Positions 3,503 to 23,331 of a stretch of 64,000 nucleotides of DNA are shown one piece after another (position 1 is the stretch's first letter; each line of letters begins with the position of its first letter). A program made the position numbers and the translations under genes. The notes under the pieces are model-generated. The model saw nothing but the letters and a program-made list of their open reading frames with translations, did no database searches and had not been told where the DNA came from. Origin of the DNA: Candidatus Omnitrophota bacterium (GTDB lineage: Bacteria; Omnitrophota; Gorgyraeia; Gygaellales; Profunditerraquicolaceae); NCBI GenBank assembly GCA_041663665.1, contig JBAYMG010000002.1:35509-99508 (forward strand), in the 5' to 3' direction.

Positions 3503-4954
3503 ATGGATCGAAAGATAAAAATAGGACTTTTAATATTTGCTCTGTTTAGCCTGGTTTATTTCCTTTCCGTAAGAGGCAACATAGAAATAAGCGATACCGG
3601 CTTTTCCGTACAAACAGCCAAATCAATTGTTACAAAGCATTCTTTATCAATCCAGGAATGCCGTGGAGGCTATTCCTATAAATCAGAAAAAGATGCCAAA
3701 TGTTATTCTAAATTCGGGTTAGGTTTAGCCTTAATATTTACCCCTTATGTACTCTTAGGAAAAATAGTAGCCACCTTAAGTAGCCTACCAGAGGCCCAAA
3801 CCATTAATTTTCTTATATCTTTTTATAATATATTTTTCGGAGCAGGAGCTTGCGTCGTAATGTTCTATATTATCAAATTTTTCGGAGGCTCCGATAGAAT
3901 TTCATTAAATATGGCCTTATTGTTAGGACTTGGAACTTTCTGCTGGCGTTACAGCATCTGGGACTTTTCTGAAGCAGCACAAATGTTTTTTCTCGCACTT
4001 TCTATTTACTGCGTCCTAAGGAATAGCATCAAAAGCCTCTCTTGGGGTGCGTTTTCTTTATGCTGCTTGCTCTTGCTAAAAGCTATCTATATTATTTATA
4101 TTCCTATTTTTATTATCTATATTTTAACAAAAAACAGGCAGGATGCAAAAGATACTTTAACGCGGGCAGGCATGTTTCTTTTAATCATTCTGGCGGGTTT
4201 CAGTCTTATTCTTTTATTAAACTATATTCGATTTGGAGAATTTTTTGAATTCGGCTATGGGTTGGAAGCAAGGGAGTTTTATTTTCTGGGAATCCAAGAA
4301 CATGTAAAAAAATTATTGTACTGGCTTGATAAGGGAGTATTTATTTATAACCCCTTATTTATTCTTGGCATACTGGGATATTGTAAACTATTTAAATTAT
4401 TCCAGAAAGAAGCGATTTTTTTCCTCTCCATTATTACCTTTCATCTCCTTCTTACCTCCATGTGGTATAGTTGGCATGGAGACTGGTCCTGGGGGCCAAG
4501 ATATCTAGTACCAACGGCTCCGCTCTGGCTAGTACCCTGCTTTCTTTTCTTCAACAAAAAGGGTATAGTTAAAATCGTATTAATTTTGTTTATTTTTGTA
4601 TCTTTATCAATACAGATTGTTAGTATTCTCCAAGGCAATCTTGAATACCTTACGATATGCAATACTCACAACCAAGAAGGATTTAAAAAAGGGATGCCGG
4701 CTCAAATTATCGGAGCAGCAATAACTTTAAAACATAAACTTATTAAAAATGATAACGTATACAGCCTCTCGGAGTTTGGAGTAAATTCCAATACGCAGAT
4801 AGATGTTTCTCAGGCTGGTTATAGGGGATTTGATTTTTGGTATCTGCACTTAGCAAGACACTTTAATAAACCTTGGTTAAAATATCTGCCGTTATTATTT
4901 TTGCCTTTTATAGCTATCCTTTTTATCCGCCTTTTTAAAATAACCGCAATATAG
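3503..4954 (+). CDS. GT-C fold integral-membrane glycosyltransferase-like protein (ArnT/PMT-like)
   Basis: 483 aa with more than 10 predicted TM helices. Acidic first periplasmic loop (EISDTGF). Sits next to a UbiA/DPPRT-like gene, as lipid-linked sugar transferases do. Confidence 0.45.
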   Translation: MDRKIKIGLLIFALFSLVYFLSVRGNIEISDTGFSVQTAKSIVTKHSLSIQECRGGYSYKSEKDAKCYSKFGLGLALIFTPYVLLGKIVATLSSLPEAQTINFLISFYNIFFGAGACVVMFYIIKFFGGSDRISLNMALLLGLGTFCWRYSIWDFSEAAQMFFLALSIYCVLRNSIKSLSWGAFSLCCLLLLKAIYIIYIPIFIIYILTKNRQDAKDTLTRAGMFLLIILAGFSLILLLNYIRFGEFFEFGYGLEAREFYFLGIQEHVKKLLYWLDKGVFIYNPLFILGILGYCKLFKLFQKEAIFFLSIITFHLLLTSMWYSWHGDWSWGPRYLVPTAPLWLVPCFLFFNKKGIVKIVLILFIFVSLSIQIVSILQGNLEYLTICNTHNQEGFKKGMPAQIIGAAITLKHKLIKNDNVYSLSEFGVNSNTQIDVSQAGYRGFDFWYLHLARHFNKPWLKYLPLLFLPFIAILFIRLFKITAI

Positions 4955-4985
4955 CTACCCGTGAAAAGGATAGAATTTGCCCCCT

Positions 4986-5022
4986 CTTCTCTAAATAAAA
5001 CCCTCTGTAAGTAAAGTACCTG
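4986..5022 (-). terminator. rho-independent terminator (minus strand)
   Basis: Minus strand: CCCTCTG, 15-nt loop, CAGAGGG, then TTTTATTT. About 70 nt downstream of the promoter-like element at 5095..5122. Confidence 0.5.
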
Positions 5023-5094
5023 CAGAGGGTTAAAAAACATTGGTTGCGCGCATTGGTATAGGTAATAACTGTATCTATCAATACACACAAGCTA

Positions 5095-5122
5095 ATTATA
5101 TAGGAAATTGGGCAGATATCAA
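5095..5122 (-). promoter_or_regulatory. orphan sigma70-like promoter (paralog of the NlpC/P60 promoter)
   Basis: Minus strand TTGATA-16 nt-TATAAT. About 100 bp including downstream leader is roughly two-thirds identical by eye to 2400..2500. No ORF follows; the terminator at 4986..5022 does. Confidence 0.45.
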
Positions 5123-5288
5123 GGAATTGTAGGCTATAAGAGATAGATTTTGTGTCACTTTTGTCACCTTTTTAAAGAACTATATCTCTCTAACTTATTC
5201 GTAAACAGAGAGTTAACGCATGTCACCTCTTTCAGGGGTGACATGCGCCAAAAAAACTACTATTTTTTCACAAAAAGAACAAACATTA

Positions 5289-6326
5289 TTAAACAAGTGG
5301 TTTTAACAATTTCTTTAATACACCTACGTTCTTTAACACAGCTGTGTCTTGAGGATTGACAAAAACAATAAAATTCGCAATGCCTAATAAGTGTTTTAGA
5401 TAATTAGCACGTGTATTTCTTATCCTCTGGAGATGAGAATCTAACCCGAATTTCTGTATATAATACATTTCTTGCCTAAATTTTTTCCGAAGCATCTTAG
5501 AAACCTGCAAATTTTTATTTGTTACTATCCCCGTAACTTCTTGCCTTTGATGAACATGCATTAGACGAGTTTTAGTTTCATTAATAGATAATTTCTCAGA
5601 TGCTAAAACGCTTTTAACAAAATTTATCATTGATCCAGACTTAATAGCACCAGAAAAAGTCAAGTCATCAGAATACCTTGTAAATCGAAAACCATATTTC
5701 TTAGAAAATCCGGCTATTCTTTTATCGATATTCATAGCAATTAAATTGGACAACGCAGGACTAGTAGGAGCTCCTTGAGGTAAACTACCATCTAAACAGC
5801 ACAAATTCGCAAACATTGTTGCAACAGGCTTGCTATACCCGAATTTCCTAAAGAGACTAAAAACTTTCCGGAATTTAATCGAACCGAAAAAGTCTTTTAT
5901 ATCAATCGTGAGCACTTTTTCTTGTCTAAGATGAAATCTGGCATTTTCCTTTATCGATACTCCCGAGACATAGGCTTTTGCATATTTACTACATTCACAT
6001 TTTTCCAAAATTTCCTTTAAAATCCATCTTTGGATTTCCTTTAGGGAAGGTAGCGGTTCCGCAATCTCACGAGAACCACCAGATTTTTTTTTAATAGTAA
6101 AAGTCCTATAAAACCAGTGGGGAGAATTAGACGCCTTTATCAAATATGACAATTTATACCCTACCAATAAAGCCAAATGTTGCTGATTATAAATTATTGG
6201 AAGATTTTGTTTAAAAAGGTAAGCTGCATAATTTAAACATTTATTTATCTGGTCTGTATCAAAACCATTGCGTTCAGCCCCTGCTGTAAACTCTTTCTGA
6301 TATTTTTCCCAAAGAATATTATCCAC
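5289..6326 (-). CDS. Retron-type reverse transcriptase
   Basis: 345 aa. RT motifs LPQGAPTSPALSNL (QGxxxSP), RYSDDLTFSG (YxDD), and the retron-specific VTG motif (RQEVTGIVTN). Lies directly downstream of a structured ncRNA bounded by inverted repeats. Confidence 0.85.
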   Translation of the reverse strand: MDNILWEKYQKEFTAGAERNGFDTDQINKCLNYAAYLFKQNLPIIYNQQHLALLVGYKLSYLIKASNSPHWFYRTFTIKKKSGGSREIAEPLPSLKEIQRWILKEILEKCECSKYAKAYVSGVSIKENARFHLRQEKVLTIDIKDFFGSIKFRKVFSLFRKFGYSKPVATMFANLCCLDGSLPQGAPTSPALSNLIAMNIDKRIAGFSKKYGFRFTRYSDDLTFSGAIKSGSMINFVKSVLASEKLSINETKTRLMHVHQRQEVTGIVTNKNLQVSKMLRKKFRQEMYYIQKFGLDSHLQRIRNTRANYLKHLLGIANFIVFVNPQDTAVLKNVGVLKKLLKPLV

Positions 6327-6338
6327 AACATCTCCATA

Positions 6339-6580
6339 CTAATGAATCTCGATAACCCCATTACCAATCAGTTTCTTCATCTTACACTAGAACAAATCAA
6401 AATTTGTTCTAGTGTCGTGCCGGCTTTAGCTGGCACGGAATGAAGATTGTGAGCGCAACTCCAGTTGCGCGAAACAGTCTTCATTCCAAGGCTTGAAAGC
6501 AAGTTCCTCTCAGGTTGACGACTCGCCAACCCTTGTGACCATAGCCACAATGAGCTAATGGGGTTATCGAGATTCATTAG
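6339..6580 (-). ncRNA. Retron msr-msd non-coding RNA
   Basis: A perfect 25-bp inverted repeat (6339..6363 vs 6556..6580; a1/a2) brackets about 190 nt. The interior holds nested hairpins: ggaatgaagattgt...acagtcttcattcc enclosing gcgcaact/agttgcgc, plus gtgccggc/gctggcac and cactagaacaaat/atttgttctagtg. Sits immediately 5' of the RT gene. Confidence 0.7.
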
Positions 6581-6887
6581 GCATCTTTCTTTTATCAGGT
6601 ATATATATTTCGTCTTTACTTAATTTTCTAACCCTATATTCTTCTTGGAGGCTAATCCATCCTTCTGTGTTTTTCCTACCAAATTTTTTATTTAATGCTG
6701 CTAACTTTTCTAAACCGCTTCCTGTTAAAACTAATTGGTCTCCCTTATTTTCAGCATAACCTTCTTTTTCAATAGAATGAATCAAGCTAGCGATTTGAGA
6801 ATATTCGAGTCCGGCTTTCCTCAAGCTATAAACTCCTCCATTATTCTTAAGGATCTGTAATAATAAAATAAGGTATTGTTCTTGCAT
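6564..6887 (-). CDS. Small winged-helix DNA-binding protein (retron accessory)
   Basis: 107 aa. Its stop codon lies inside retron repeat a1. In an operon between the PRTase-like gene and the ncRNA. Confidence 0.5.
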   Translation of the reverse strand: MQEQYLILLLQILKNNGGVYSLRKAGLEYSQIASLIHSIEKEGYAENKGDQLVLTGSGLEKLAALNKKFGRKNTEGWISLQEEYRVRKLSKDEIYIPDKRKMPNESR

Positions 6888-6892
6888 ACAAG

Positions 6893-7756
6893 TTAACCTG
6901 CTGAAAAAGGTGCAATAAATTTTTTCCCATTCTCCATGGAATTCTCACACCAATATACAGGGAAAGTATTATTGGGCGTTCTTGACATCATAGCCACAAG
7001 CGCTTCCGTCCTATTGTAACCAAAATTATATTTTTTCTTCACTTTTATTAAACTTTCAATAGATTCCATAATCCTTGATTTTGTTTCTCGTTCTGGATTT
7101 AAATAACTATCACTTATTCCTCTTTTTCTTATTATGCGTGAAAAAACTCTGATTCCAAGCCTGCTTAATCGTTGCACCCCCATTTCTTGTGCTACAAGAG
7201 AAACAACGAGAATCTTATTGTAATCTGTAATCCCAGCAAGACGACACATATCCTTCACTGCGGTTTCTCCAGTCTCTCCCGATCCAATAAAATCATCAAC
7301 TAAAATTAACATTGCCGGGATAAAATTTATGTCCTTGGGGATTGCCAAAGGACTGTCTATAAGACATATTTTCTTACCGCGAAATAAATCGTTGTTCGAA
7401 AGGTGTGATATTTTAATAAGATACCTAGTAAAAATGGCGCTTTCATTTCTAGTCTCATTTTCTCTTTTCTCCGGATAAGACTGTAATGGCAAAATATAGA
7501 TTTTATTACAATCCACCAATAATTTTTTTTCAATCATAAATAAAGAAGCATACAAATAAGATTCATATTTATTAAGCGTAACCCACAGAAATTCTCTAGT
7601 TAATTCAAAAATTAAACCTTGCTGTTCTGGGCTAAAGTGTTCTAACGCCTGGCAAAAACGATCATATTCTTCCCTATGATCTTCAATAGACCATCCGTTT
7701 TTATTAAATATTTCTGTGAGCTTTTCTAGGGCAACTAGACTGATATTCGTTTTCAT
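6893..7756 (-). CDS. Phosphoribosyltransferase (PRTase)-like retron effector
   Basis: 287 aa. Type I PRTase PRPP-binding motif ILVDDFIGSGETGETAV. 5-bp gap to the wHTH gene. Confidence 0.7.
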   Translation of the reverse strand: MKTNISLVALEKLTEIFNKNGWSIEDHREEYDRFCQALEHFSPEQQGLIFELTREFLWVTLNKYESYLYASLFMIEKKLLVDCNKIYILPLQSYPEKRENETRNESAIFTRYLIKISHLSNNDLFRGKKICLIDSPLAIPKDINFIPAMLILVDDFIGSGETGETAVKDMCRLAGITDYNKILVVSLVAQEMGVQRLSRLGIRVFSRIIRKRGISDSYLNPERETKSRIMESIESLIKVKKKYNFGYNRTEALVAMMSRTPNNTFPVYWCENSMENGKKFIAPFSAG

Positions 7757-7833
7757 TATTAAAGATCCACGTTCAATGTAAAAAAATTATTTGCCACTAC
7801 ATACGCATACCAAATATAATTATACCTCAGAAA

Positions 7834-8499
7834 TTAATGATAACAAGCGCACAAAAACTGCATAAGTACTGACATTTCAAATAAAACTCCATCAAATCCC
7901 TTATCTTTCTTTAAGTACTTATTATACGCCTCTTCCCCAGATACTAAATGGTATTTCTTCTTCTTAGAATCCCATTCAAACTTGATCCTTGTCTTATCTG
8001 GGGCTCTTGTGGACAGGGTTGAGAATGTCTTTTTTAAGCTCCTTGCAAGTTCTTCTTCATTCCAACCGTGTTTCTTACAATTCTTAAGAAGATATTTTTC
8101 ACGAAGCTCTCTAATGTAATCTGTCATCATTTCATCTTCCGTAACTGGCTTATAGGAAGAAGGTAATAAATCATCTATGGTTTTCTTATCATAAACAAAC
8201 CTCTGATACTCTGTTATCTTATTCTCAGAAATCCAGTTATCTATGCTTCTCTTATGAAAGACTACTTTGCTCCTAGGTAGCTTAGAAAATGGCATTTTTT
8301 GGCCATTTACCCAGGTTTTTATGGTGCTAAGAGGCACACGCAGGTAATCCGCCACTTCTTCTTCATTAAACACCTGTCGGCTTGTTTTCTTGATTAGGGA
8401 GGCTTCCTGGAGGGATCTTTGATCTAAAAACTCACCACAATGCTTGCATTTAATGGCTTCTTCCTGGATTTCTTCTGCGCAGAAAGGGCATCTCTTCAT
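7834..8499 (-). CDS. Zn-ribbon plus excisionase-type HTH protein (hypothetical)
   Basis: 221 aa. N-terminal CPFC...CKHCG zinc ribbon. HTH pattern VADYLRVPLSTIKTWVNG. 4-bp overlap with the upstream P-loop gene. Confidence 0.45.
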   Translation of the reverse strand: MKRCPFCAEEIQEEAIKCKHCGEFLDQRSLQEASLIKKTSRQVFNEEEVADYLRVPLSTIKTWVNGQKMPFSKLPRSKVVFHKRSIDNWISENKITEYQRFVYDKKTIDDLLPSSYKPVTEDEMMTDYIRELREKYLLKNCKKHGWNEEELARSLKKTFSTLSTRAPDKTRIKFEWDSKKKKYHLVSGEEAYNKYLKKDKGFDGVLFEMSVLMQFLCACYH

Positions 8500-9014
8500 C
8501 TTCCAAACAGAATATTGGTTCGCTGTTGAATTATTCTTGCATTGAAATAGGTAAAGTTTCTTGCATTAAGCGAAAAAGGCTCTATGTTTAGGTCTAGCCT
8601 ATTTTGCATGTCTCTGGGGATAACTCCATTATTATTCCTTCCTGGGTTGATAACAAATGAGCGTATCTCAAAACCACCTATCCTCCGCAAAAGACTGAAT
8701 ATTTGTTCAATTCTTATACGCTTCTTAGAATCAGTAGGTTGAATAGCCATTACTACACCCAGGGCATGTCTATCTTCAAGCACTGCTCTTAAAAATCTCC
8801 ACAACTGACTAATCGTAGCCTTGGGGTTTTCTTGGAAAGAATCTGGAATAACATATAATCTACGCAGCGGATTAACCGTTAGATTTTCCATTATATACAC
8901 GCGTAAGTCTCTAAAAAAATTACCTGTTCTTTTTCCACCACAACCCGTAAGACTTCGTATAATTGCGCTTTTACCAGACTTGCTATACCCAATAATTGCA
9001 ATAAATTTTTTCAT
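8496..9014 (-). CDS. Small P-loop NTPase (hypothetical)
   Basis: 172 aa. Walker A IAIIGYSKSGKSAI. Translationally coupled to 7834..8499. Confidence 0.5.
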   Translation of the reverse strand: MKKFIAIIGYSKSGKSAIIRSLTGCGGKRTGNFFRDLRVYIMENLTVNPLRRLYVIPDSFQENPKATISQLWRFLRAVLEDRHALGVVMAIQPTDSKKRIRIEQIFSLLRRIGGFEIRSFVINPGRNNNGVIPRDMQNRLDLNIEPFSLNARNFTYFNARIIQQRTNILFGR

Positions 9015-9023
9015 TATTAACTC

Positions 9024-9785
9024 CTATTTTAGCTCTACCCAACCATTAGGTTTTACAAATAAAACTTTTTTGTGATCAATAATGTAATCTAGTTCAAAAA
9101 ATTTATCGATATTAATAATATCGCTATCAGTAAAAATTTTATAAATCAGGAATTGTGGCTTTAATGAACAAACAAAAAATACAACATTTTTATTACTCTC
9201 AAATTTTATTTTTTTAGAAGAAATTAACTTTTTCAAATCTCCGGCATAATGAAGCAGGAGACCTTTTGTATTTTTTGTATTTGTTTTTAACGTACCTCTG
9301 TTAACACTTTCAAGCACATGAAACAACACGGCATCTTGCTGGGGTTCTTTGATCAATTTTTCAAGGTCTTGTATACAGGTTACTGTATGGGCTTTGAATT
9401 CTACTATTGTACTTCTTTTATATTTCTCATTCCCAATATCATAAATAGATAGATCTATAGACCCGGAACTTTCAACCCCACATTTACTTTTAAAATTATA
9501 TTTTCTTACTGTGGGTGTTTCAACAGAAAACCTTATTCCTCTTTTTTCCAGTTCAAAGGCAAAAAGAAATCTGGCTTCTTGTTCACTTATCCTAGTATAT
9601 GGTTTTCCTTTATTTATTGCCTTGGGAAAAATTAAATTTGTATAATCATCTGCATGACAGTATAATTCGTTTTTCATATCAAAAAGCTTCTTGGACACAG
9701 AAATGGCTATTTCTTTCAATTCAGATATCTTTTCTTCGTTTATCATTTTGTCTTTATCCATGCAAATATTAATTATATTTTCCAT
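9024..9785 (-). CDS. Hypothetical protein, possible PD-(D/E)xK nuclease fold
   Basis: 253 aa. Putative nuclease triad pattern SEQEARF...GSIDLSIYD...TIVEFKAH (E, D, ExK). Weak. Confidence 0.35.
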   Translation of the reverse strand: MENIINICMDKDKMINEEKISELKEIAISVSKKLFDMKNELYCHADDYTNLIFPKAINKGKPYTRISEQEARFLFAFELEKRGIRFSVETPTVRKYNFKSKCGVESSGSIDLSIYDIGNEKYKRSTIVEFKAHTVTCIQDLEKLIKEPQQDAVLFHVLESVNRGTLKTNTKNTKGLLLHYAGDLKKLISSKKIKFESNKNVVFFVCSLKPQFLIYKIFTDSDIINIDKFFELDYIIDHKKVLFVKPNGWVELK

Positions 9786-9824
9786 CAGTATAATACTGCT
9801 TATACACTTATGCGCCTTTAATGC

Positions 9825-11012
9825 TTAAAAATCAACATCTCTAAGAAAACTTGTGATTTTAGATGACTCCTTATCATCAATGCCATCCCACTTATTTTTA
9901 ATGTTAATTTTTTCAGGAGGTCTTGAAAAACTTGCAATATAAGACTTGATGTCATCAATTTGCTTCTTCGTTTTTCCCACAGCAGTTCCATGTATCTCAA
10001 TATCATGAGACAAAGGAGTGCCGTAATTTCCCTTATCCAAACCAAGAGCTTGTATATTTTGTTCATGATAAGCAAAACCTAGAAAATAAACCCGCTTTGC
10101 TTTTTGGAATATTTCCCTATAGTCTTCTTTTTCCAAAGGAAGCTCATGACTAATTCTAATCATTTTTGCCCGCTCGATGATTTCCTTGGCAAAAGTACTT
10201 CTAGACTGATCATTAATAAATTGACTTACTCCAAAATCCGCCTCACTAGCACCAAATGTTCCCACTTTGTCATATAATGGGAAAAGGTCTCTGAAAGTAA
10301 CAGGAGTAAAATCATTGATTACTTTTGGTTGTTTCCTGTGCGCCTGCTGATAATTAAATTGCCAAGACATTATACCCAGCTTCCCATGAACATGTTGAAT
10401 AGAGATTTCATCAAAAAAACTTGCAATCTTATTCTCATAATCATGTAAATTATATTGGGCCTTAATTGCTTTAAACAAAAAGATTTCTAATGAACGGTCG
10501 TAATTAAAAGTGATAATTTTTAGCCGGTTATTCTTAAGTTTTTTAAAATCTTTTCCAGTGTCATCTATGAGTCTTTCCCATAAATATCTATACCACCCCC
10601 ATTTTAATCCAAAATTTTTATTTCCTTGAAACCGTCTTATGTCTTCACACTCGGATAAAGCAAAAAGTATAAAAAGTTTTCCTATCAAGCTATATTTTGT
10701 AGGAGATAATAAAAAATCGTCAATTGAAGGAGGATTTGCATCCTCCAAGTCTGCGGCGAATTTTTGGATATCATCAACAGAATAGGAACCGTTATCTTCC
10801 TTTTTTTCTCCGGAAATATCTAATAAACGCCAAAGTAGATGAGAATTTCGCAAGGAATGATTGACAATGTCTTTGGGAGACCGCAAGTGAAGGCCTATAG
10901 TTTCTCCTGCGGCTAAATCAAGTATGTTTTTTATTAGCGTTTTCCCTAAAGGAAATCCCACTTCGTTACTTGAACCAGCTCCAAGAATCAAAACTGTTTC
11001 CTTATCAATCAT
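9825..11012 (-). CDS. SIR2_2-family (defense-type SIR2-like) protein
   Basis: 395 aa. N-terminal VLILGAGSSNEVGFPLGKTL matches the SIR2_2 'LGAGxS...G.P' Rossmann start. C-terminal RVYFLGFAYHEQN repeat of the FLG motif. Confidence 0.65.
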   Translation of the reverse strand: MIDKETVLILGAGSSNEVGFPLGKTLIKNILDLAAGETIGLHLRSPKDIVNHSLRNSHLLWRLLDISGEKKEDNGSYSVDDIQKFAADLEDANPPSIDDFLLSPTKYSLIGKLFILFALSECEDIRRFQGNKNFGLKWGWYRYLWERLIDDTGKDFKKLKNNRLKIITFNYDRSLEIFLFKAIKAQYNLHDYENKIASFFDEISIQHVHGKLGIMSWQFNYQQAHRKQPKVINDFTPVTFRDLFPLYDKVGTFGASEADFGVSQFINDQSRSTFAKEIIERAKMIRISHELPLEKEDYREIFQKAKRVYFLGFAYHEQNIQALGLDKGNYGTPLSHDIEIHGTAVGKTKKQIDDIKSYIASFSRPPEKINIKNKWDGIDDKESSKITSFLRDVDF

Positions 11013-11112: not shown

Positions 11113-14100
11113 TTAATTGCGCATCTCTTCGTCTCTATCTAAATGCTCTTTAATTATTACACCGATACTTTCGCTGCATTTTTTTATAATATCTTTCAGG
11201 CTAGCTGATTTTGCTTTAAGATATAAGCTTTCGAATGTATCTTTCAATTCTAATAAGACTGGAGGAACTTGACCAACTGGCGCAGACCAACCATCTTCAG
11301 GATAGGTCTTATGAAAAAATAGAGTTTTTACTTCATTCTCTAAATTGAGTTTTATAGCCTCCTCTCCAATTCCAATAAAAATTTCTTGGTTTTCTTTAGA
11401 TAATGTAAGAAATTCCATACAATACAAAGCATTCTGGACATCTTTTTGCCCCAATAGTTCCCGTATAAAAGCAACATGATAATTTGCTCCCGACCCCTTG
11501 TCGATAATATCTACTACTGTTTTAACTAAGCCCTTCAAATATAAATGCCCATACTTTTCTTCCTTTTCCCACTTAATAACACGTTTAATAAATTTTGTGT
11601 AATCATCGTAAGAATGGATTACTTCTCTCAGTGCTGTAATACCCTCAAATGGTATAACATAGAATCTATCTTCTCCAGATAGTTGTTTTTGTAATTCAAA
11701 TCTATTCTCAACAAAAATTAAGAGCTCATCAACATCTGTTATGCAGAATTTTAACAAATCTTGTTCATGCCATTCAAACTTAAGACTTTTTTTTAACATC
11801 TCAATAATTTTAACTCTAAATTCTTTAGTTTTCGGACTTTCCACTTTAATATCATTTTTAAGGCTGTGGACGAAGAAATCCACTGCGTCTGTAAATTCTT
11901 TAGCAGGATCTGACGTTTTACTTATCATCATAATGATAAACTCGATACATTCATCGAAATTTCCTGTTTGTTTTGAAATAAAATAAAGATTTCTAATAAT
12001 GCCAGGATACCACTCTTGTTTACCATCTTGAATCAACCTGATAATCCAATCCTGCCAAGGAACATTATTAATAGCTTTATCAATTAACCACAAGAAGTTA
12101 GAAATTTTGTTATAGGAAACGCTGGATAAGCTAGCAAAAATTTCGTTTGCCAATCGCAATAAATGACCTTCTTGAATATTAACAAGGGTATAATCAATTT
12201 GGTTTTGGAACATTTCTGTTATGTTGCTCCAGAATAAATCATTGTTCCGAATTTCTTTAAAGGCTTTTGGGTTGATTTTGACCCAACAATTGAGAAATAT
12301 TACACCACTCCAGCTTTGGCTATTAACAATAAGTTTTCCTAAATCCACCAAAAAATCGACAATCGATACCGGATCTCTGTATTTACTATTTAATTGTTGA
12401 ACTATGTTCTCAAAATCTTCTTCTTTCCTATTCCAACGATCAAGTCTACCGTTATGCACAAACCACTCCCAACGTTTATCTTCAGGAGCATTACTTTCAA
12501 CCTCACTAAAATCATCTATTATAAATTCTTCGGCAGCAAAGGCTCGAAATATTAAATATTCTGGAGTTCTAGGTATTATTCTCAAATATTTTGCGACATT
12601 TTCTGCTCCTTCTCGTTTAGTTGCCCAAAAACGAACAAACATATCTTCAATAGCGCTCAAAAGCTTAAAATCTTTTGTTTTGCTTATTATGGTTCCGACC
12701 TTTTCAACTGCTGCTCTAGTTTCTTCAATAATTCTAGGATAAAGAGGAAACTCAGATGAAGGCTTACCCAGACTCATCGCTCTATGACCAATATGACGGA
12801 CTACCTGTAAAGCATTTTGCCTCACCGATAAAGAATCATCATCTAACATCTTATAAAGTATTTCTATCGCTTTATCCCGCATGGCAATTACCTGGGGAGA
12901 ATTTTTCAAATAACGTTCTCCAAATACGAATTTATCCATATAGGAATGTGTGTACTCATGCGTACCCGCAAGAACTTCATTTAGTCCTGACTTCAAAAGT
13001 TCCACTCCCCGCGGTTTATCATCTTTCATCCAAGTCTCCATTAATAAAAGTCCGGAGAGGATATTCTCAAGATCATTTGATATAGGACAAACAAACTGTG
13101 AAATCAAAGTTTCAATGTGATAATTACTATATGATCCCTTTTTTACTAAGCCGCTAATATCATAAATAAAACTTAATACTTGTTCTCTAGCAGTACTAAC
13201 CGCCATTAGTCTTAAAAGAACCGGCCCATAGTCATCAGTGGAAAGTTCATACCTACTTGATTTTAGATATGGATTTTCTTCTTCGGGAGCAATTATCTTT
13301 TTATAGCTCCGCAACAATCTCATTGATTCTTCTGGTATAAGCGTAGCTACATCCTCAATAAATTTTAGATGCTGCCTTCTTTCGCTTAACGGCGTGATCG
13401 CCGCGTCTTGTTCCCACTTTAAAGCAATTTCAGACAAACAGACCTTTACTTTATTAATTTCACCATATCGAGAAGCAGAGCCTATGTTTGAAAAGACATT
13501 ATTAGGAGTAATGGTAATCCAATGCAAAATAATACCCCTAAGAAACGTTTCCTCCAAAAACTCTAGTTTATAACCTAGATATATATCTCCTTTCATATCA
13601 GTATTAAATCTTACACTATTGCCAACCTTTCTAAGAATGCCTACTTTTATTAGTCGTTCTATAGCGCCAGATATTAACTCCAGTTTCACCTCAAAATTTG
13701 TTGTCAAATTCTCCAGTATATTTTTGTCACCTATGTGAAAAGGAACTATACACGTTAGAGTAAATATAAATAGTTCAAAATCAATATCAGCGAATCCAGC
13801 TAAGCATTTCTTTGTATCAACTATTATGTCCTCGATGAACTTCTTTCTCAACGTAACAAAATCGGCAATCTTAGTCCCCTTGAGTTTATTCCCGATCCAT
13901 ACTATTAAATAAGGATTAGAATTATAATGAACAATCTGCTCCTCATCTTCAACGGGATTTTTACCAACAACTAATCTCAACAACTCCGTCAGCTCTTCCT
14001 TATTCCATTCCTTAATTTGGAACTCTTGCATATATTGAAAACATTTCATTTCTTGTACAACTTGAATAATAATATAAACTCCCGAGCTTCTTGTGGCAAA

Positions 14101-14952
14101 AATTACCTTTACATCCACGCCACTTTCTTTTAAGAAATGAAGCAGCGGACGAAGTTCTTCAACATAACGATCTGCGTCATCAACGATTAATAAATATTTC
14201 TTATCTGAACTTATTTCAGATTGGAGGGCTTCAATATTTGCAAAACCTGCCCGAACAAACCAAATTTGTCTTTCTCTATCAATACCCCGAACAAATAGAG
14301 AAAGATCTCGAAGAAGATGCGACTTTCCCTGCCCTCCGTGTGCATAAAGATGAAATATTTTTTGATCTTTTGAGCCCAAAAAACCACTTATACTGCGTTT
14401 GCATTCATTTAATGCAGGTCTTTCAATTGTAGAAGGAATAATTTCACGCTCGAAACTATTATAGTAATAACCGCTATCGACCAAAGCTGGATATGGATAT
14501 TCTTTAAAAAAAAGAAATCTTAAATAGGGATATCTTATAATGCGCATTTCAAGATTTTCTCGAGACCAAATCTCTAATGTTTCCACGTCTCCCTTATTAA
14601 TAGATTGTAACTCTAAAACATGCTCTATTCTTAACTCAGCATTAGTAGATATACGCAAATGGTTCACCTTATTGTCCTTAGCTTTCTTCAATTCTTCTTT
14701 AACGACTGTTTTTAAATACTCTCCTGCTTCGTCAAACGATTTTTTGGTCCATTTTGACTGTACTGAAAATACTCCTGAATCCTTTTCTAATTGATAGTAT
14801 CCTTTATAATAACCATCCCATCCTCCATCGGCACCGATATATGGACTTGATGGGATAAATCCTGGAGAATCACATTCTAAGGCAAATAAATGATTAGTTA
14901 ACCTCTGAAAAATTTTATCATTATCTATAAGATTCCAATTAAGCATCCTCAC
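11113..14952 (-). CDS. Mrr-like nuclease / STAND-type P-loop NTPase / C-terminal repeat protein (Avs-like)
   Basis: 1279 aa. N-terminal GADGGWDGY...VQSKW resembles the Mrr_cat GxDGGxDG...QxK motif. Walker A LYAHGGQGKSHLL and Walker B LLIVDDAD. About 900 aa of helical repeat region follow. Confidence 0.65.
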   Translation of the reverse strand: MRMLNWNLIDNDKIFQRLTNHLFALECDSPGFIPSSPYIGADGGWDGYYKGYYQLEKDSGVFSVQSKWTKKSFDEAGEYLKTVVKEELKKAKDNKVNHLRISTNAELRIEHVLELQSINKGDVETLEIWSRENLEMRIIRYPYLRFLFFKEYPYPALVDSGYYYNSFEREIIPSTIERPALNECKRSISGFLGSKDQKIFHLYAHGGQGKSHLLRDLSLFVRGIDRERQIWFVRAGFANIEALQSEISSDKKYLLIVDDADRYVEELRPLLHFLKESGVDVKVIFATRSSGVYIIIQVVQEMKCFQYMQEFQIKEWNKEELTELLRLVVGKNPVEDEEQIVHYNSNPYLIVWIGNKLKGTKIADFVTLRKKFIEDIIVDTKKCLAGFADIDFELFIFTLTCIVPFHIGDKNILENLTTNFEVKLELISGAIERLIKVGILRKVGNSVRFNTDMKGDIYLGYKLEFLEETFLRGIILHWITITPNNVFSNIGSASRYGEINKVKVCLSEIALKWEQDAAITPLSERRQHLKFIEDVATLIPEESMRLLRSYKKIIAPEEENPYLKSSRYELSTDDYGPVLLRLMAVSTAREQVLSFIYDISGLVKKGSYSNYHIETLISQFVCPISNDLENILSGLLLMETWMKDDKPRGVELLKSGLNEVLAGTHEYTHSYMDKFVFGERYLKNSPQVIAMRDKAIEILYKMLDDDSLSVRQNALQVVRHIGHRAMSLGKPSSEFPLYPRIIEETRAAVEKVGTIISKTKDFKLLSAIEDMFVRFWATKREGAENVAKYLRIIPRTPEYLIFRAFAAEEFIIDDFSEVESNAPEDKRWEWFVHNGRLDRWNRKEEDFENIVQQLNSKYRDPVSIVDFLVDLGKLIVNSQSWSGVIFLNCWVKINPKAFKEIRNNDLFWSNITEMFQNQIDYTLVNIQEGHLLRLANEIFASLSSVSYNKISNFLWLIDKAINNVPWQDWIIRLIQDGKQEWYPGIIRNLYFISKQTGNFDECIEFIIMMISKTSDPAKEFTDAVDFFVHSLKNDIKVESPKTKEFRVKIIEMLKKSLKFEWHEQDLLKFCITDVDELLIFVENRFELQKQLSGEDRFYVIPFEGITALREVIHSYDDYTKFIKRVIKWEKEEKYGHLYLKGLVKTVVDIIDKGSGANYHVAFIRELLGQKDVQNALYCMEFLTLSKENQEIFIGIGEEAIKLNLENEVKTLFFHKTYPEDGWSAPVGQVPPVLLELKDTFESLYLKAKSASLKDIIKKCSESIGVIIKEHLDRDEEMRN

Positions 14953-16629: not shown

Positions 16630-18294
16630 TTAGCCTCTCCTGTGCCAACCATACCAGCCGTAAGGCACGCGTCCAGTTGCATCTGGATACATATCGGGAT
16701 TACAAGGCAGTTTACTACCATCACCACCAACCCAAAACATAAAGTTATTATCCTCCAGAGCCAATTTTACAGCTAGCCATAAAGCATCTATTGCATCATC
16801 ATGCGCGCCTTTCGGACAATGTTTCATTTGTTCAATCAAAACATGCAGTCTTCTGCTAAGCTGTAGTACCCCGCTGGCAAAGAGAGGCTGAAGCGATTGA
16901 AAACGCCCCAGCTTGTCTGTAGTATTCGGAATACCCACAACTGGCACATAAACCTGCGCTAACTCGCTACGCCTTTTCAACTCAGAAGCAAGAAACTCCT
17001 GAAACTGGTTAGTTTCAACCCCGAACTTCGTGTAACCGCGTATCTTCTGATATGACATAATCGTCTCAATTATGTTATCGGGTTTGCGCTTCGCCACGTC
17101 CGCGTCAATAACATAAAGGGTTCCTTTTTCAGTGTCTTTTGCTACGGTTACAATAGCAGTATAGTCGCTCCTTCTGCTCTCTTTGCCAAGACTCGGGTCG
17201 CAACCGCCATACATCCTCTTCTTTGCGCCTAAATTTACCAGCAGATTTTCTGTACTAAAATGCTTATCCTCCAAACCACCGTAGCTATCGGCATCAAATA
17301 TCCGATCCCTGGGATTTACCGGCTCATTTTGCATTTCACTGTCAAAACTTGCTGTTCCTTCCTCTAAGCGCATGACCATAAGGTCATAATAACTGTATTT
17401 TGCCTCCCAGAGAACCTGGGCCCCCTCAAGCATCTGGGTTTTGTTTTGCTCAAAGAACCTTAGCGCCGCTTCAGGCCCTTCGCCTCCTTCAAAGGCATCC
17501 TGGTGGCTATATATCCTTTCCCATTTCTCCCACAGCTCAGGATGCACAGACCACGATATGATCGAACGGTAGATGCGTTTTTCCCAGCCAGGATGTGCGT
17601 CGGAACTTGTAAATTGCGCCAGGAGCGATCCGTAATTGTGGATTGTCCCAAGAAAAACTACATTGGTTGCGCTTGTGCCGGATTTTAATACTGACCGGGT
17701 GAGATAATCATAGAGTCTTTCGAAGTTCTCGGTAGACTGAATAGCATTACCCGCCTCCAGATCATCAAGAATGATCAAGCTGGGCCGTGATTGCTTGTAC
17801 TTACGGCTCCTGATCTGCTGGTTATAGCCAAGCGCAAGCACTTCGATGCCATTTTTGGTAATAATATCATCTTGTCTCCAGCGTGGCGGTTTGGGTTTTT
17901 CGCCGATTTCGCAAATATCGGGAAAATCATCCTTGAGACGCGGGTTAGTCTCAAGCTCAAACTTGATGTTAGTTAGGAAACTTTCGGCCTGCTCCTTGGT
18001 GTTGGAAATAATCACAATAAAATCTTCCAAATGGTAGCAAATACAATAAATTACAAACTCAAAGGACGCAATGGTGCTTTTGGCGCTGTTACGCGGGGAG
18101 GCCAGGGCAATACGAACTCCACGCTTCCTAGAAGCCCCCACTAGTAACTCCCCTATATCCCGATGGAATGGCGCATCGGCAATAGAATGGTAAAGCGGAA
18201 AATAATATTTTCTAAAATACTCGAAGTTTCTTCCGAAAGACCGCCGTAATTTTATTGCATCGCCTTTTACTTGATATAACTGGGCATTATTCAT
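16630..18294 (-). CDS. Phage terminase large subunit
   Basis: 554 aa. N-terminal ATPase region (RIALASPRNSAKST). C-terminal RNaseH-like nuclease region GGCDPSLGKESRRSDYTAIVTVAKD. Confidence 0.85.
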   Translation of the reverse strand: MNNAQLYQVKGDAIKLRRSFGRNFEYFRKYYFPLYHSIADAPFHRDIGELLVGASRKRGVRIALASPRNSAKSTIASFEFVIYCICYHLEDFIVIISNTKEQAESFLTNIKFELETNPRLKDDFPDICEIGEKPKPPRWRQDDIITKNGIEVLALGYNQQIRSRKYKQSRPSLIILDDLEAGNAIQSTENFERLYDYLTRSVLKSGTSATNVVFLGTIHNYGSLLAQFTSSDAHPGWEKRIYRSIISWSVHPELWEKWERIYSHQDAFEGGEGPEAALRFFEQNKTQMLEGAQVLWEAKYSYYDLMVMRLEEGTASFDSEMQNEPVNPRDRIFDADSYGGLEDKHFSTENLLVNLGAKKRMYGGCDPSLGKESRRSDYTAIVTVAKDTEKGTLYVIDADVAKRKPDNIIETIMSYQKIRGYTKFGVETNQFQEFLASELKRRSELAQVYVPVVGIPNTTDKLGRFQSLQPLFASGVLQLSRRLHVLIEQMKHCPKGAHDDAIDALWLAVKLALEDNNFMFWVGGDGSKLPCNPDMYPDATGRVPYGWYGWHRRG

Positions 18295-18932
18295 TTTTTT
18301 CCCTCCTGTTCTTGGGTTATTTCATTCTCAAGATGCTCGACTTCCGATTGGATATTTTTTATTTTCTCCTGATCAGATGGCTCAATTCCTCCTGTCTGGC
18401 TGGCAATGGCTTCAATATCTTTAATGCTGTTTTTTATCTCATCACACATCGCTTGACCATCTGAAGTGGAAAAATGGTGAAAGAAATCTCCTGTGAGAGC
18501 CTGTTCTTTTAGCGGTAAGAAACCGAGGCTCTGGAGCTTCTCGGTTAATTCCTTTACCACCCGCCAGGAGGCAAATTCAGCCTGAGTTTTCTCGCCAATT
18601 GAGCCATCTTTTGAGCGGGCAAGCCGCAGGAGATATAAATGGCTTGTTCTTGCCTTTTGAACCAATTCACCAATAAACTGCTTGGCCTGTTCTAAGCTTG
18701 GCGTAAGGGCGTTCTTCCTGCGGATTTCTTCAAAGTACCTATACACAGTACGATCCGATTTATTCAAAAGCTGAGCTATCTGGGATATTGAAGATCCTTC
18801 AGCGTATAAAACAGAAACAATCTGCTCAATTGTTTCAGGAGGAAGGCTCGAAACCCTAACGGTACCGCTCTGAATACCCTGGATATAAAAGGTGGTGGGT
18901 TTCTCAGAAGAATTTTTATTTTTTGCCATTTT
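18291..18932 (-). CDS. Terminase small-subunit-like HTH protein
   Basis: Internal start MAKNKNSS chosen to avoid overlap with the upstream gene. HTH SISQIAQLLNKSDRTVYRYFEEI. Directly upstream of TerL. Confidence 0.45.
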   Translation of the reverse strand, partial: KMAKNKNSSEKPTTFYIQGIQSGTVRVSSLPPETIEQIVSVLYAEGSSISQIAQLLNKSDRTVYRYFEEIRRKNALTPSLEQAKQFIGELVQKARTSHLYLLRLARSKDGSIGEKTQAEFASWRVVKELTEKLQSLGFLPLKEQALTGDFFHHFSTSDGQAMCDEIKNSIKDIEAIASQTGGIEPSDQEKIKNIQSEVEHLENEITQEQEGKK

Positions 18933-20181
18933 TACTTCCTCCAAAATACTTTTGCCGCACTTCCGGTGAAACCGAATCCATCCCGAAGGCGCGGATGTAA
19001 CGCCGAACAGCAACATCCACATAAAGGGGTTCAATCTCACAGCCCCGAAACACCCTACCCATTTGTTGGCAGGCAATAAGGTTAAACCCTGCGCCCATGC
19101 AGCCGTCAAAAACGACATCATTACGCTCACTGCTGTTAGTCAAGACACGCCGAGCAAGCGATACCGGTTTTGCCGTCGGATGTAATTTGCCAACAGCCTC
19201 ATCATGGTCGAATTGCCAGACATTAGTTTCATTTTTTGGCCCATACCAGCGGTGTGGCCCATTACCTTTGCGCCATGAATAAAGTAAAAACTCTGAGGAA
19301 AATTTGTAATCACCAAACCCTGGGCAGGCGGAGGGTTTAATCCCGGTTATCACATTGGCCACATGGAAATTCATCTCAAGCAAAAGCTGTGTCATCAAAC
19401 CAAAATTGCGGAATCCACCCCAGAGATAAACCGGCGCACCCTCAACGAGGAATTGCATAACGTTCGCCATCACCTCTCTGAGCCACTTTAAATACTCTTC
19501 CCCAACCAAATCATCGTTCTCGATAGGCTTCCAATCCGGCCTCTGCTTTTCTTTGTGCGCAGACTTCGGCCGGTTGCGGGAATCGTAAGCGCAACCGTAG
19601 GGAAGATCCATGTGCAAGAGCGAAATCTTTTCATCGCCTAAAAGGCGCTCAAGGTTATCTTTCTTGGCAGTATCGAAGCAACCGAACTTGTGAAGACCAA
19701 CCTCCACAATATCGCCAGGAACTGTAACCGGCTTATCTATTTGCGAGATTTCTTTTTCGATATCAAAGTCCTCGTCAATCTGCGCAGTGTAGGTATCTAG
19801 GATATGAAACACTTCAATCGGCTCAAATCCGGTTAGGTTCAGCAGTTCCGGAGTCTTCATAATCTCTTGGAAAATTACCGGCAGGCTGGGGTTATCAAAT
19901 TCCCCGACGAGTTTATTTAGCGCCAAATTTAACGCCATTTCCTCTTCAATTGACAGGTCTACCGAAACCACGTTAACTTCTGTATACCCCAACTCGAGCA
20001 GGGCGCGCAGGCGCTGATTACCTCCAACCACATGCCAAGTTCGCATATTGACGATAAGCGGAGAGTAAACTTTAAATCTTCTAATGTTTTCTTTGAGCTT
20101 CTCAAAAACCGCCTTCTTCATCCTGCGCGGGTTGTAAGGCGCGAACTTTAACTTTTCAATTGCCATCTTTTGTCTTTCCAT
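18916..20181 (-). CDS. ParB-like nuclease domain / DNA methyltransferase fusion (phage-type)
   Basis: 421 aa. N-terminal ParB/Srx pattern (KLKFAPYNPRRM...VVGGNQRLRALLELG). MTase motif IV-like DLPYG and motif I-like VFDGCMGAGFN near the C-terminus (beta-class order). Confidence 0.65.
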   Translation of the reverse strand: MERQKMAIEKLKFAPYNPRRMKKAVFEKLKENIRRFKVYSPLIVNMRTWHVVGGNQRLRALLELGYTEVNVVSVDLSIEEEMALNLALNKLVGEFDNPSLPVIFQEIMKTPELLNLTGFEPIEVFHILDTYTAQIDEDFDIEKEISQIDKPVTVPGDIVEVGLHKFGCFDTAKKDNLERLLGDEKISLLHMDLPYGCAYDSRNRPKSAHKEKQRPDWKPIENDDLVGEEYLKWLREVMANVMQFLVEGAPVYLWGGFRNFGLMTQLLLEMNFHVANVITGIKPSACPGFGDYKFSSEFLLYSWRKGNGPHRWYGPKNETNVWQFDHDEAVGKLHPTAKPVSLARRVLTNSSERNDVVFDGCMGAGFNLIACQQMGRVFRGCEIEPLYVDVAVRRYIRAFGMDSVSPEVRQKYFGGSKNGKK

Positions 20182-21061: not shown

Positions 21062-21889
21062 CTAGCTTTTAATTTGTAATTCTTTTTTTTGTATCCATTT
21101 AAAACCGTCACGATGAGTTATTACAGCTATATCTACATCACCGCCACATCCCGGAACATCCCCTGGACTCATATTTATACCATCAGAAAATCGTTGCATT
21201 TTAATAGTGCTATTAACCATTAATAATGCAAAATCTACTGCATCCTGTAAAGCCATCGTAGACCAGTTTATTACATATTGCAACCCTGCCACCTGTGTAG
21301 CAATCGGAAGTTGATTCAAAGGTGGATTTGCAAGTATGTGCTGAACGACCGGAAGTTGTTCAATCCTTGGATCGAAGCCAAGGACCAACCTCATTACAAC
21401 ATCTACCTGACCATTCCAATTACAGCCAGCATTATTAGTATTACGAAGCAAGCTCGGAGCTCCCGGTGGTATTTGACACAAATGGACTTCTCCTACTGTG
21501 GAATTTTGATTGTACCCAACTACTTGAAATCCTACCGCTATACCACCCTGTGGAGCTGGGTTCCATTTTAAGGAAGTAATATTGTAGTTATAGATTTGCT
21601 GAAAATACTCGGATAGACGGGTTGCGGCCTCAGCAACATTGATTTCAGGATCTAAGGTCGACCTAAAATCTTCAACCAAAGCACCAATACTTATAAGGGA
21701 ATTGGCAGTTTCAGGCTTCAAAAATCCCCAACCGAAAGTAGCTACTGCAATTCTAGGTGACAATTGGAAAACTTTCGAGGCAAAATCAGAACCAACCCTA
21801 GCTTGCTGTTTTGGGTTGATATTAGTTTGTCTGCTATCCGCTGCCAAAACTATTCCCTCAGGAATAGCAACCGATATAATTATCGACAT
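21062..21889 (-). CDS. Proteasome-beta/HslV-like Ntn-hydrolase family protein
   Basis: 275 aa. N-terminus MSIIISVAIPEGIVLAADSRQT aligns with the proteasome/HslV start ([21 protein letters not shown]). Lys33-region KVFQL...IAVATFGWG matches K(V)xxL..(V/I)A..F.GG. GCGG matches the GSGG loop. Extra C-terminal extension of about 80 aa. Confidence 0.6.
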   Translation of the reverse strand: MSIIISVAIPEGIVLAADSRQTNINPKQQARVGSDFASKVFQLSPRIAVATFGWGFLKPETANSLISIGALVEDFRSTLDPEINVAEAATRLSEYFQQIYNYNITSLKWNPAPQGGIAVGFQVVGYNQNSTVGEVHLCQIPPGAPSLLRNTNNAGCNWNGQVDVVMRLVLGFDPRIEQLPVVQHILANPPLNQLPIATQVAGLQYVINWSTMALQDAVDFALLMVNSTIKMQRFSDGINMSPGDVPGCGGDVDIAVITHRDGFKWIQKKELQIKS

Positions 21890-21902
21890 CTTACTCTCCT
21901 TG

Positions 21903-22790: not shown

Positions 22791-23331
22791 GATTCCACCT
22801 CCTAAAAATACTTAAAAGTGACTTCTTAAGGGGAACCCCAACAATGTATTTAAATTTACCCGCGCTATCAACAACCCTTATTTCATTTATAAGCAGTGGC
22901 TTGCTCTGCTTAGGTAACCATATCTGCCCCCGCACGCCGTTCTTTGTAAATACGACAGCACCATATAGCTTATTGGGCAGTTTCCACCATACATATTGAA
23001 CAAATGCGTCCAAGCCATGCACATCGCTTGGAGAAAAAGCGGCGGGTCCGTTAAAACGATTGGAGTGACATTCCATTAAGTCACAATCATATTCACGCGC
23101 CTTCAGCATTACCTCAACTTTTTCGCGCTCATCAAGCTCCAAATGACAGTCGCTTTGGTAGACCCACCCGCCAGCCCCTATAGCATGGATATCCTTTACT
23201 TCAAATTCTATTGAGGATGGCTTTATACTGCTTTTAACAAAGAGAAAACAGCCCTGTTCTTTTCTTCCCCTGAAGAGGTGCTTCCGAACAAGGCTGTATT
23301 GCCGTTCTACAAATGACAGAGCAATAAACAT
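22783..23331 (-). CDS. JAB/MPN-domain (JAMM) peptidase-like protein (BilC-like), non-canonical metal motif
   Basis: 182 aa. EQGCFLFV (JAMM Glu region) then ECHSNRFNGPAAFSPSD in place of the canonical HxHx7Sx2D. 8-bp overlap with the E1 gene. Confidence 0.55.
   Translation of the reverse strand: MFIALSFVERQYSLVRKHLFRGRKEQGCFLFVKSSIKPSSIEFEVKDIHAIGAGGWVYQSDCHLELDEREKVEVMLKAREYDCDLMECHSNRFNGPAAFSPSDVHGLDAFVQYVWWKLPNKLYGAVVFTKNGVRGQIWLPKQSKPLLINEIRVVDSAGKFKYIVGVPLKKSLLSIFRRWNHG

Follow-up and report, generated by a model that had tools for sequence, protein, structure and literature searches.

We find, with high confidence, that the minus strand of positions 5289..7756 carries a complete retron of type III-A, most likely subtype III-A1, whose accessory proteins are split, in a 64,000-nucleotide (nt) stretch of DNA from a Candidatus Omnitrophota bacterium that we refer to throughout as the window. 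Read 5' to 3' the locus comprises a phosphoribosyltransferase (PRTase)-like effector, a winged-helix (WH) protein, a 242-nt structured noncoding RNA (ncRNA) and a retron reverse transcriptase (RT), and there is hardly any space between these four successive elements (7756..6893, 6887..6564, 6580..6339 and 6326..5289). All four retron parts are intact, the three proteins being full-length members of the III-A families and the RNA having the conserved architecture of its own family. The features discussed below are the following, with the evidence for each in brackets.

6893..7756, minus strand: PRTase-like effector gene, 287 amino acids (PADLOC, Pfam, homologues, AlphaFold2)
6564..6887, minus strand: winged-helix accessory protein gene, 107 amino acids (PADLOC, weak Pfam match, homologues)
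6339..6580, minus strand: retron ncRNA (msr-msd), 242 nt, with the a2/a1 inverted repeat at its two ends (repeat, folding, comparison)
6556..6580, minus strand: a2, the 5' arm of the perfect 25-base-pair (bp) inverted repeat (repeat search)
6555, minus strand: predicted branching (priming) guanosine (invariant A-G, position in Eco11)
6490..6554, minus strand: msr part, ahead of the msd hairpins (covariation, covariance model R1)
6364..6504, minus strand: predicted template of RT-DNA (DNA made by reverse transcription; msd), about 141 nt (homology with Retron-Bpu1; boundaries inferred)
6339..6363, minus strand: a1, the 3' arm of the inverted repeat (repeat search)
5289..6326, minus strand: retron reverse transcriptase gene, 345 amino acids, GTG start (PADLOC, Pfam, NCBIfam, motifs)
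7819..7846, minus strand: candidate sigma-70-like promoter, TTGTTA, 16 nt, TATAAT (consensus match only)
5215..5251, minus strand: strong hairpin, possible end of the operon transcript (folding)

The RT matches the PADLOC family RT_III-A over nearly the entire profile (E = 1.6e-146, positions 3-339 of 341) and Pfam RVT_1 above its curated cut-off. On the NCBIfam model retron_St85_RT it scores 239.6 bits, just above the curated cut-off of 235, and on the group II intron RT model 54.9 bits, far below the cut-off of 300. The solved structures that it matches by sequence amount to 15 chains, all of them RTs and 13 of the 15 named as retron RTs, the best being Ec86 (E = 7e-42, residues 41-304). As judged by the NCBIfam cut-offs and by these structure matches, the RT does not group with the RTs of group II introns, diversity-generating retroelements or abortive infection systems. 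Its motifs NARFH at 128-132 (NAxxH), YSDD at 218-221 and QEVTGIV, with VTG at 264-266, are kept among 29 homologues, in which N128, A129, H132, Y218, D220, D221, T265 and G266 are invariant, and it also carries LPQGAPTSP. The GTG start lies 4 nt downstream of GGAGA (6335-6331). Taken together, these features read as a retron-lineage RT with NAxxH, VTG and YxDD.

The family to which the RT belongs is large, with thousands of matches; those with names come mostly from Bacillota, at identities of up to 60%. All of the relatives listed in a genome scan stand at 50% identity or less, and a metagenome scan gave one further close relative, at 83% identity (locus L084). Relatives at 80-83% identity occur in other metagenomes, with the RNA conserved, and an exact-protein look-up found the RT sequence not to be on record.

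The first gene of the operon encodes a protein that matches PADLOC PRTase_III-A (E = 1.6e-72, positions 3-265 of 267) and the Pfam family PRTase-CE (PF24390) at 63.3 bits against a cut-off of 27. The open reading frame (ORF) 6893..7756 contains LILVDDFIGSGETGETAV, and within the protein the motif for binding phosphoribosyl pyrophosphate (PRPP), LILVDDFIGSGET, follows the loop pattern DD..GSG.T, with D154, D155, G158 and G160 invariant in 66 homologues. In the same 66 homologues G246, P261, N262 and N263 of G246-x14-P261-N-N-T-F-P are likewise invariant; this Gx14PNN motif has been described as specific to retron PRTases (PMC12746101). An AlphaFold2 model built from the 66 homologues is confident (predicted local distance difference test score, pLDDT, 94.3) and includes an N-terminal helical extension of 80 residues. 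Compared with the PDB, the model matches only type I PRTases, and these distantly (E about 5e-5, template modelling (TM) score 0.3-0.47, identity 8-18%); by sequence, no solved structure matches the protein. It is identical to a GenBank protein of the host's metagenome-assembled genome that is annotated as hypothetical. Together the motifs and the predicted fold point to a type III-A PRTase-like effector with the PRPP loop and Gx14PNN. Mestre et al. 2020 left the catalytic function of these PRTases open (PMC7736814).

The WH gene starts 5 nt past the stop codon of the PRTase gene, and its product matches PADLOC WH_III-A (E = 1.5e-29, positions 1-100 of 101) and, weakly, the winged-helix family HTH_45 of Pfam. 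A single-sequence AlphaFold2 model is moderate to weak (pLDDT 64, the tail of residues 72-107 falling below 50) and too weak for a fold search, and no solved structure matches the protein by sequence. Although the evidence for its fold is thus weak, the gene appears to encode a separate small winged-helix protein downstream of the PRTase, as in the split variants III-A1 and III-A2. The WH proteins share a C-terminal W..P...(D/E)IY(I/L)P (6564-6650 here; loci L081, L083-L087 and L003), of which the (D/E)IY(I/L)P part directly precedes a poorly conserved tail encoded by the a2 arm.

The sequence features listed in the original prediction of a retron at this locus were all found where it had placed them. 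Its reading of the RT as bearing the retron-specific VTG agrees with the invariant T265 and G266 of QEVTGIV, and its assignment of a type I PRTase motif is borne out by the invariant PRPP loop and by a predicted fold that matches type I PRTases. The winged helix-turn-helix (wHTH) protein and the PRTase-motif protein that it saw upstream correspond to full-length matches to WH_III-A and PRTase_III-A, and the family matches, the synteny and the conserved ncRNA all uphold its placing of the locus in the PRTase/WH-associated class of retrons.

Between the WH and RT genes lies the region that we regard as msr-msd. It is bounded by two arms of 25 nt (6339-6363 and 6556-6580), 192 nt apart and 100% complementary, so that the perfect inverted repeat originally described is confirmed. 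Inside the repeat are a perfect 14-bp stem (6384-6397/6402-6415), a 10-nt stem (6416-6425/6428-6437) and a 14-nt stem (6437-6450/6474-6487) that encloses an 8-bp stem (6453-6460/6463-6470). The nested hairpins that had been predicted are therefore present; the enclosing 14-nt stem pairs at 93%. Folding 6339..6580, a check proposed at the outset, gave -123.5 kcal/mol for the minus-strand RNA as against -60.7 +/- 4.5 for dinucleotide shuffles (z = -13.9, none of 200 as good). As the plus strand folds equally well, folding alone cannot assign the strand, which we assign from the conserved msr motifs and the orientation of the RT.

The ncRNA is tightly packed between its neighbours. It overlaps the final 17 bases of the WH ORF, whose TAA stop (6566..6564) and last five codons are encoded within the 5' arm. 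The 3' arm closes with TAG (6341-6339), a stop codon that is in frame and shortly upstream of where the RT starts, and the RT ORF begins thirteen bases past the ncRNA. The stop codon of the WH gene had been placed within repeat a1; it does lie within the 5' arm, and since by the convention used for Retron-Eco11 the transcript's 5' arm is a2 and its 3' arm a1 (PMC12746101), the arm that contains the stop is renamed a2. As the relatives and Eco11 are packed likewise, a stop codon within a repeat arm is typical of the class. A 66-amino-acid ORF with an ATG start lies wholly inside the ncRNA (6377-6577, minus strand) and is best read as chance.

The msr part contains two stem-loops, SL1 (6544-6550/6533-6539) and SL2 (6524-6531/6513-6520; GGUUGGCG-AGU-CGUCAACC), followed by a conserved UUUCAAGCC at 6498-6490, a motif that is also present in Retron-Bpu1 of Bacillus pumilus. 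The conserved msr hairpin has the consensus GGYUGGCG-AGU-CGYCARCC, and SL2 shows compensatory changes in 7 of its 9 pairs. A covariance model of the msr (R1) matches the window exactly once (E = 1.2e-13, 81 bits, at 6490-6570 of the minus strand) and 12 related loci besides, always upstream of the RT, which makes 13 of 99 sources in total; in distant Bacteroidota loci with PRTase and RT the RNA is too divergent for R1. An alignment by MAFFT over the whole ncRNA aligned the msr but not the variable msd, and covariation was tested on msr SL2 and on the anchored arms only.

Next to a2, A14 and G15 are invariant in 15 loci, as is G-U before a1. The arms of the relatives are unrelated in sequence; in every case the 5' arm ends ...UA|G and a G stands before the 3' arm. 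For the inner 14 bp of the arms in the 15 loci, 96.7% of the cells are paired and 13 of the 14 pairs show compensatory changes, whereas sliding the 3' partner by 1-3 columns as a control lowers pairing to 36-49%. As the arms were chosen by an inverted-repeat search, their pairing is partly by construction and the figure inflated, and the independent evidence for them is their anchoring to the invariant flanking bases together with the conserved msr motifs. Position 6555, the G of UUA|G at the a2 boundary, a sequence invariant in the relatives, matches the unpaired branching G that follows the inverted repeat in Eco11, and by this analogy G6555 is the predicted branching residue.

The same layout recurs upstream of related RTs. 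Among 20 regions searched for inverted repeats over the 400 nt upstream of the RT, 16 have as their best one a repeat that spans 203-256 nt and comes to within about 55 nt of the RT match; in the remaining four the top-scoring repeat lies elsewhere. The relatives' repeat, different in sequence and 208-256 nt in span, occupies the place that it has here. The upstream ORF has its stop codon 11-33 nt ahead of the branching G, and a1 is followed by the RT start after 5-24 nt. Single-sequence folds of the relatives show a variable hairpin, a conserved hairpin, UUUCAAGCC and then two or three long variable hairpins, with an A-rich tail ending UAG or UGG just before a1. The locus described here holds an adjacent ncRNA on the strand of the RT, with a2/a1 repeats and an unpaired G.

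The extent of the reverse-transcribed region is suggested by Retron-Bpu1, a type III-A retron with PRTase and WH that makes RT-DNA both in its native host, Bacillus pumilus, and in E. coli (PMC12548924). The RT-DNA region of Bpu1 is 142 nt long, beginning CTGTATTTTCAAGCCTTG and ending AATTGAATGG (S3 Table of PMC12548924), and the counterparts of these ends in the window are ACTTGCTTTCAAGCCTTGG and CTGATTGG. By homology of both ends, the template here is predicted to run from 6504 to 6364, about 141 nt. It contains the stem-loops 6437-6487, 6417-6436 and 6384-6415 and closes with a 3' single-stranded tail ending GG (6365, 6364) just before a1. The complementary single-stranded DNA is predicted to fold into three stem-loops (-41.3 kcal/mol, z = -10.6).

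Relatives of the whole operon support the synteny. In Bacillus proteolyticus and one metagenomic contig the order is PRTase (288-307 amino acids), WH (99 amino acids), a gap of about 230-280 nt and the RT. A tblastn search of 111 fetched loci found the PRTase upstream of the RT, with gene order and spacing alike, in 21 (Bacillus proteolyticus and 20 others, from several phyla) and WH homologues in 10. Mestre et al. 2020 define five III-A variants (PMC7736814), and separate PRTase and WH genes, as seen here, fit A1, A2 or part of A5. On the PADLOC model RT_Ec107-like the RT scores 321 bits (1.5e-96), and on the RT_II-A models 284 bits or less; a later survey (SPIRE) gives III-A1 as the sister lineage of the Ec107-like RTs. 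As the RT scores higher on Ec107-like than on Ec86-type models and III-A1 is sister to the former, A1 is the most likely variant. The end motifs of the window ncRNA resemble those of Bpu1 and of the III-A1-type Sda1.

Drawing on the characterised retrons Retron-Bpu1 and Retron-Eco11, we propose how such a locus could work. Eco11 needs its ncRNA, RT and effector; its trigger is the phage helicases UvsW and D10, and its action depletes PRPP (PMC12746101). By analogy, the operon transcript would fold so that a2 (6556-6580) pairs with a1 (6339-6363), and the RT would bind the msr hairpins and prime from the 2'-OH of G6555. It would then copy the msd from about 6365 to about 6504 into a branched RNA-DNA molecule (msDNA) with about 141 nt of DNA in three stem-loops; this priming and length are modelled on Bpu1. 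The WH protein would bind the msDNA and, together with the RT, keep the PRTase-like effector inactive in a ternary or quaternary complex as modelled on Eco11. A phage factor acting on the msDNA, a DNA helicase in the case of Eco11, would switch the effector on, and consumption of PRPP would lead to collapse of nucleotide metabolism and abort the infection. That the locus would serve anti-phage abortive infection is predicted from Eco11, a III-A3 retron and the only one of type III-A for which this has been shown.

Several points weigh against this account. Bpu1, the only tested retron of the same split architecture, failed to protect against any of 12 E. coli phages, overexpression included (PMC12548924), and since it made RT-DNA without protecting, defence by retrons with PRTase and WH is unproven. 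The mechanism is borrowed from III-A3, in which the effector is fused and the RT belongs to a different clade (9 as compared with, probably, 2). A branched msDNA from the present locus is predicted by homology with Bpu1, which makes RT-DNA from the equivalent region, and subtype III-A1 is assigned indirectly, from gene separation and profile scores. As to expression, the candidate promoter lies 63 nt upstream of the PRTase start, and the region holds 14 such sites where shuffles lead one to expect 13.1, so that, the scan showing no excess over shuffles, 7819..7846 is a weak candidate. A terminator scan of the region called none. Lastly, a search for Rfam retron models, which the original prediction had suggested as a check, brought no support: in 5000-8200, with E up to 10, no family reached its gathering score, and the matches below threshold are chance hits to unrelated families (CRISPR-DR17, small nucleolar RNAs, a microRNA). 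This shows that Rfam has no model fitting this ncRNA family and is not evidence against a retron. The CRISPR-DR17 match, at 26.7 bits against a threshold of 42, lies on the plus strand at 6015-6039 inside the RT gene and is best read as chance.

A hairpin of 15 bp stands 38 nt past the RT stop (5215..5251, -24.3 kcal/mol, z = -4.8), with no clean U-tract. It is located between the RT stop and a convergent gene at 3503-4954, and on the minus strand a T-run precedes it; possible roles are a bidirectional terminator and the boundary of the island described below.

Among the other ways to account for these data, one accepts a genuine III-A retron and questions the chemistry of its effector, which might transfer phosphoribose to a nucleobase, a nucleotide or a nucleic acid instead of depleting PRPP; or else WH might be the toxic partner, regulated by the complex. 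We consider this unlikely, though it deserves to be taken seriously. The effector has only a remote kinship with metabolic PRTases (8-18% identity, TM score 0.3-0.47) and has the 80-residue N-terminal helical extension and the extra invariant G-x14-PNNTFP motif, and PRPP depletion has been shown only for the fused III-A3 effector. Yet the PRPP-binding loop is fully conserved, and the sole experimental data on any III-A effector indicate PRPP depletion. A related thought, which we find rather doubtful, is that retrons with split PRTase and WH (III-A1) work differently from Eco11: the free WH could be an msDNA-bound adaptor, possibly an antitoxin-like partner, and free PRPP need not be the substrate that the divergent PRTase-like enzyme attacks. 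The coding sequence for the conserved C-terminal (D/E)IY(I/L)P tail of WH reaches as far as the a2 arm and, at this locus, into it. As ribosomes finishing WH would have to open the a2/a1 stem, WH synthesis and msDNA priming would then be mutually exclusive on each transcript, and if so this exclusivity could set the stoichiometry of the complex.

It is also conceivable, although very improbable in our view, that the locus is a silent or non-defensive passenger, acquired horizontally with an island and either unexpressed in Omnitrophota or serving a role unrelated to phage. The closest named relatives of the RT are from Bacillota at 60% identity or less while the host belongs to Omnitrophota, the locus sits in an island with a serine recombinase, it has no significant promoter, and Bpu1 showed no defence. 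Against this, the ORFs are full length relative to their profiles and keep every invariant residue, the perfect 25-bp repeat argues for ongoing selection, and the relatives at 80-83% identity in other metagenomes have the RNA conserved. We give almost no credence to the idea that the 242-nt stretch is an inserted miniature transposable element, or an attenuator or terminator between WH and RT, and not msr-msd. Both strands fold equally well, and long perfect terminal inverted repeats are typical of miniature inverted-repeat transposable elements; but the covariance model has just one match in the 64-kb window, homologous RNAs that share the msr motifs and differ in their arms occupy the same position in at least 13 loci, the arms covary, and the homologous region of Bpu1 is reverse transcribed.

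The retron stands at one end of a stretch of about 28 kb (5100-33210) that extends from about 5.1 kb to a tRNA-Gln gene (33133-33206). This stretch has the look of a defence or mobile island that has integrated, in keeping with horizontal acquisition. The ThrS protein encoded in the window is identical to a GenBank protein of a Candidatus Omnitrophota metagenome-assembled genome. The island includes a large serine recombinase (31156-32799, plus strand) with a DUF2924 protein (30665-31147), and housekeeping genes resume at 34.2 kb. A search for attachment sites found no direct repeat of at least 11 nt between 4900-5400 and 32750-33450. The window as a whole has 38% G+C and a strong asymmetry between its strands, with 14172 C and 10193 G on the plus strand, and nearly all ORFs of at least 150 amino acids are on the minus strand.

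Directly upstream of the retron are four co-directional genes (7834-11012, minus strand) with little or no family assignment. The first, 7834-8499, encodes a zinc ribbon and HTH_17 with a weak MAD1-like or excisionase-like match, and the other three (8496-9014, 9024-9785 and 9825-11012) have only faint matches to LmuB or SIR2. We considered these genes as part of the retron and rejected them, no homologue being found in any of the 111 related loci, and for this reason the functional unit is taken as 5289..7756 plus the promoter. The genes next to the retron are not conserved among related loci, and those at 7834-11012 could form a separate, undescribed module.

Farther along the island, 11113-14952 (minus strand) encodes a protein of 1279 amino acids that PADLOC does not match and in which Pfam finds a 'novel STAND NTPase 5' domain (PF25199, 2.3e-10); it is possibly an Avs-like sensor. 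A phage-like remnant at 16630-20181 (minus strand) has a large terminase (phrog_38, 5e-93), with an HTH_7 protein where a small terminase would stand, and a fusion of ParB_N with a DNA methylase (PADLOC MTase_II, 1.5e-64); nearby, no further structural phage genes were recognised. At 21062-23331 (minus strand) a ThiF/E1-like protein (21903-22790) with weak PADLOC matches to E1-E2 and BilD is flanked by two proteins that have no family matches, and the group could be a ubiquitin-like conjugation defence module of Bil-like or CBASS-accessory-like type. The overlapping genes at 25599-30286 (minus strand), for a ResIII/SNF2-type helicase (935 amino acids) and an N6/N4 DNA methylase (627 amino acids), have the layout of a type III restriction-modification system.

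The locus was originally presented as a new instance of its class in a divergent low-GC genome. Its novelty was overstated: as the type III-A class was already defined by Mestre et al. 2020 (PMC7736814), the locus belongs to a known class, and standard defence-finder models would call it automatically. The text of the SPIRE retron survey makes no mention of Candidatus Omnitrophota, and a retron census preprint does not mention type III. What the locus adds is one type III-A retron, intact and well delimited, from a phylum that is uncultured and has been little studied. Its predicted branching G and its msr and msd coordinates could serve as an extra template for retron editors, and it could give one more data point for the horizontal spread of defence islands. 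The questions that concern the class, namely defence, the trigger, the chemistry of the effector and the structure of the complex, are easier to address in cultured relatives such as Retron-Bpu1.

Bpu1 resembles the window in the order of its operon, with the PRTase first, in PRTase N-termini that can be aligned, in the template ends UUUCAAGCCUUG... and ...AAGAU...UUG(A)AUGG, in template length (142 as compared with 141 nt) and in having multiple hairpins, the sequences of which are unrelated between the two. Bpu1 has been shown to support recombineering (PMC12548924). Eco11 of E. coli (III-A3; PMC12746101) likewise has a PRTase-like effector that carries both the PRPP loop and the retron motif; its a2/a1 pairing is 25 bp long and includes the stop of the upstream gene, its ncRNA abuts the RT start, and an unpaired G follows the repeat. 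After the wHTH its effector has a C-terminal tail with YYPxxLR, which resembles the (D/E)IY(I/L)P of the window WH. It differs in that PRTase and wHTH are fused in one protein, in the clade of its RT (clade 9, as opposed to the probable clade 2 here) and in its msd of 101 nt with two stem-loops, compared with about 141 nt and three predicted here; the window repeat, unlike that of Eco11, is without a bulge. The trigger (the helicases UvsW and D10) and PRPP depletion have been shown for Eco11 only.

Eco1, or Ec86 (II-A3), has the nearest solved RT by sequence and, by the logic that is proposed for the window locus, combines RT and msDNA with a nucleotide-metabolism-like effector and a wHTH; its effector, however, is nucleoside deoxyribosyltransferase-like and not a PRTase, and its ncRNA is of another family. 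Retron-Eco5, which is Ec107-like (clade 2, no effector), has a closely related RT, and Retron-Sda1, with a III-A1-like RT and HipA/DUF3037, has an ncRNA of III-A1 type, yet both lack the PRTase/WH pair. From III-A1 as defined (clade 2 RT, IIIA1 ncRNA, PRTase-like cluster 113_1 and WH cluster 742_1; PMC7736814) nothing structural sets the window locus apart. In both, the PRTase and WH are encoded separately, upstream of the ncRNA and RT, and both have the same RT motifs and the PRPP and Gx14PNN motifs; by profile scores the window RT stands closer to the Ec107-like sister clade than to the Ec86-type RTs. Apart from its Candidatus Omnitrophota host, the locus is ordinary for its class.

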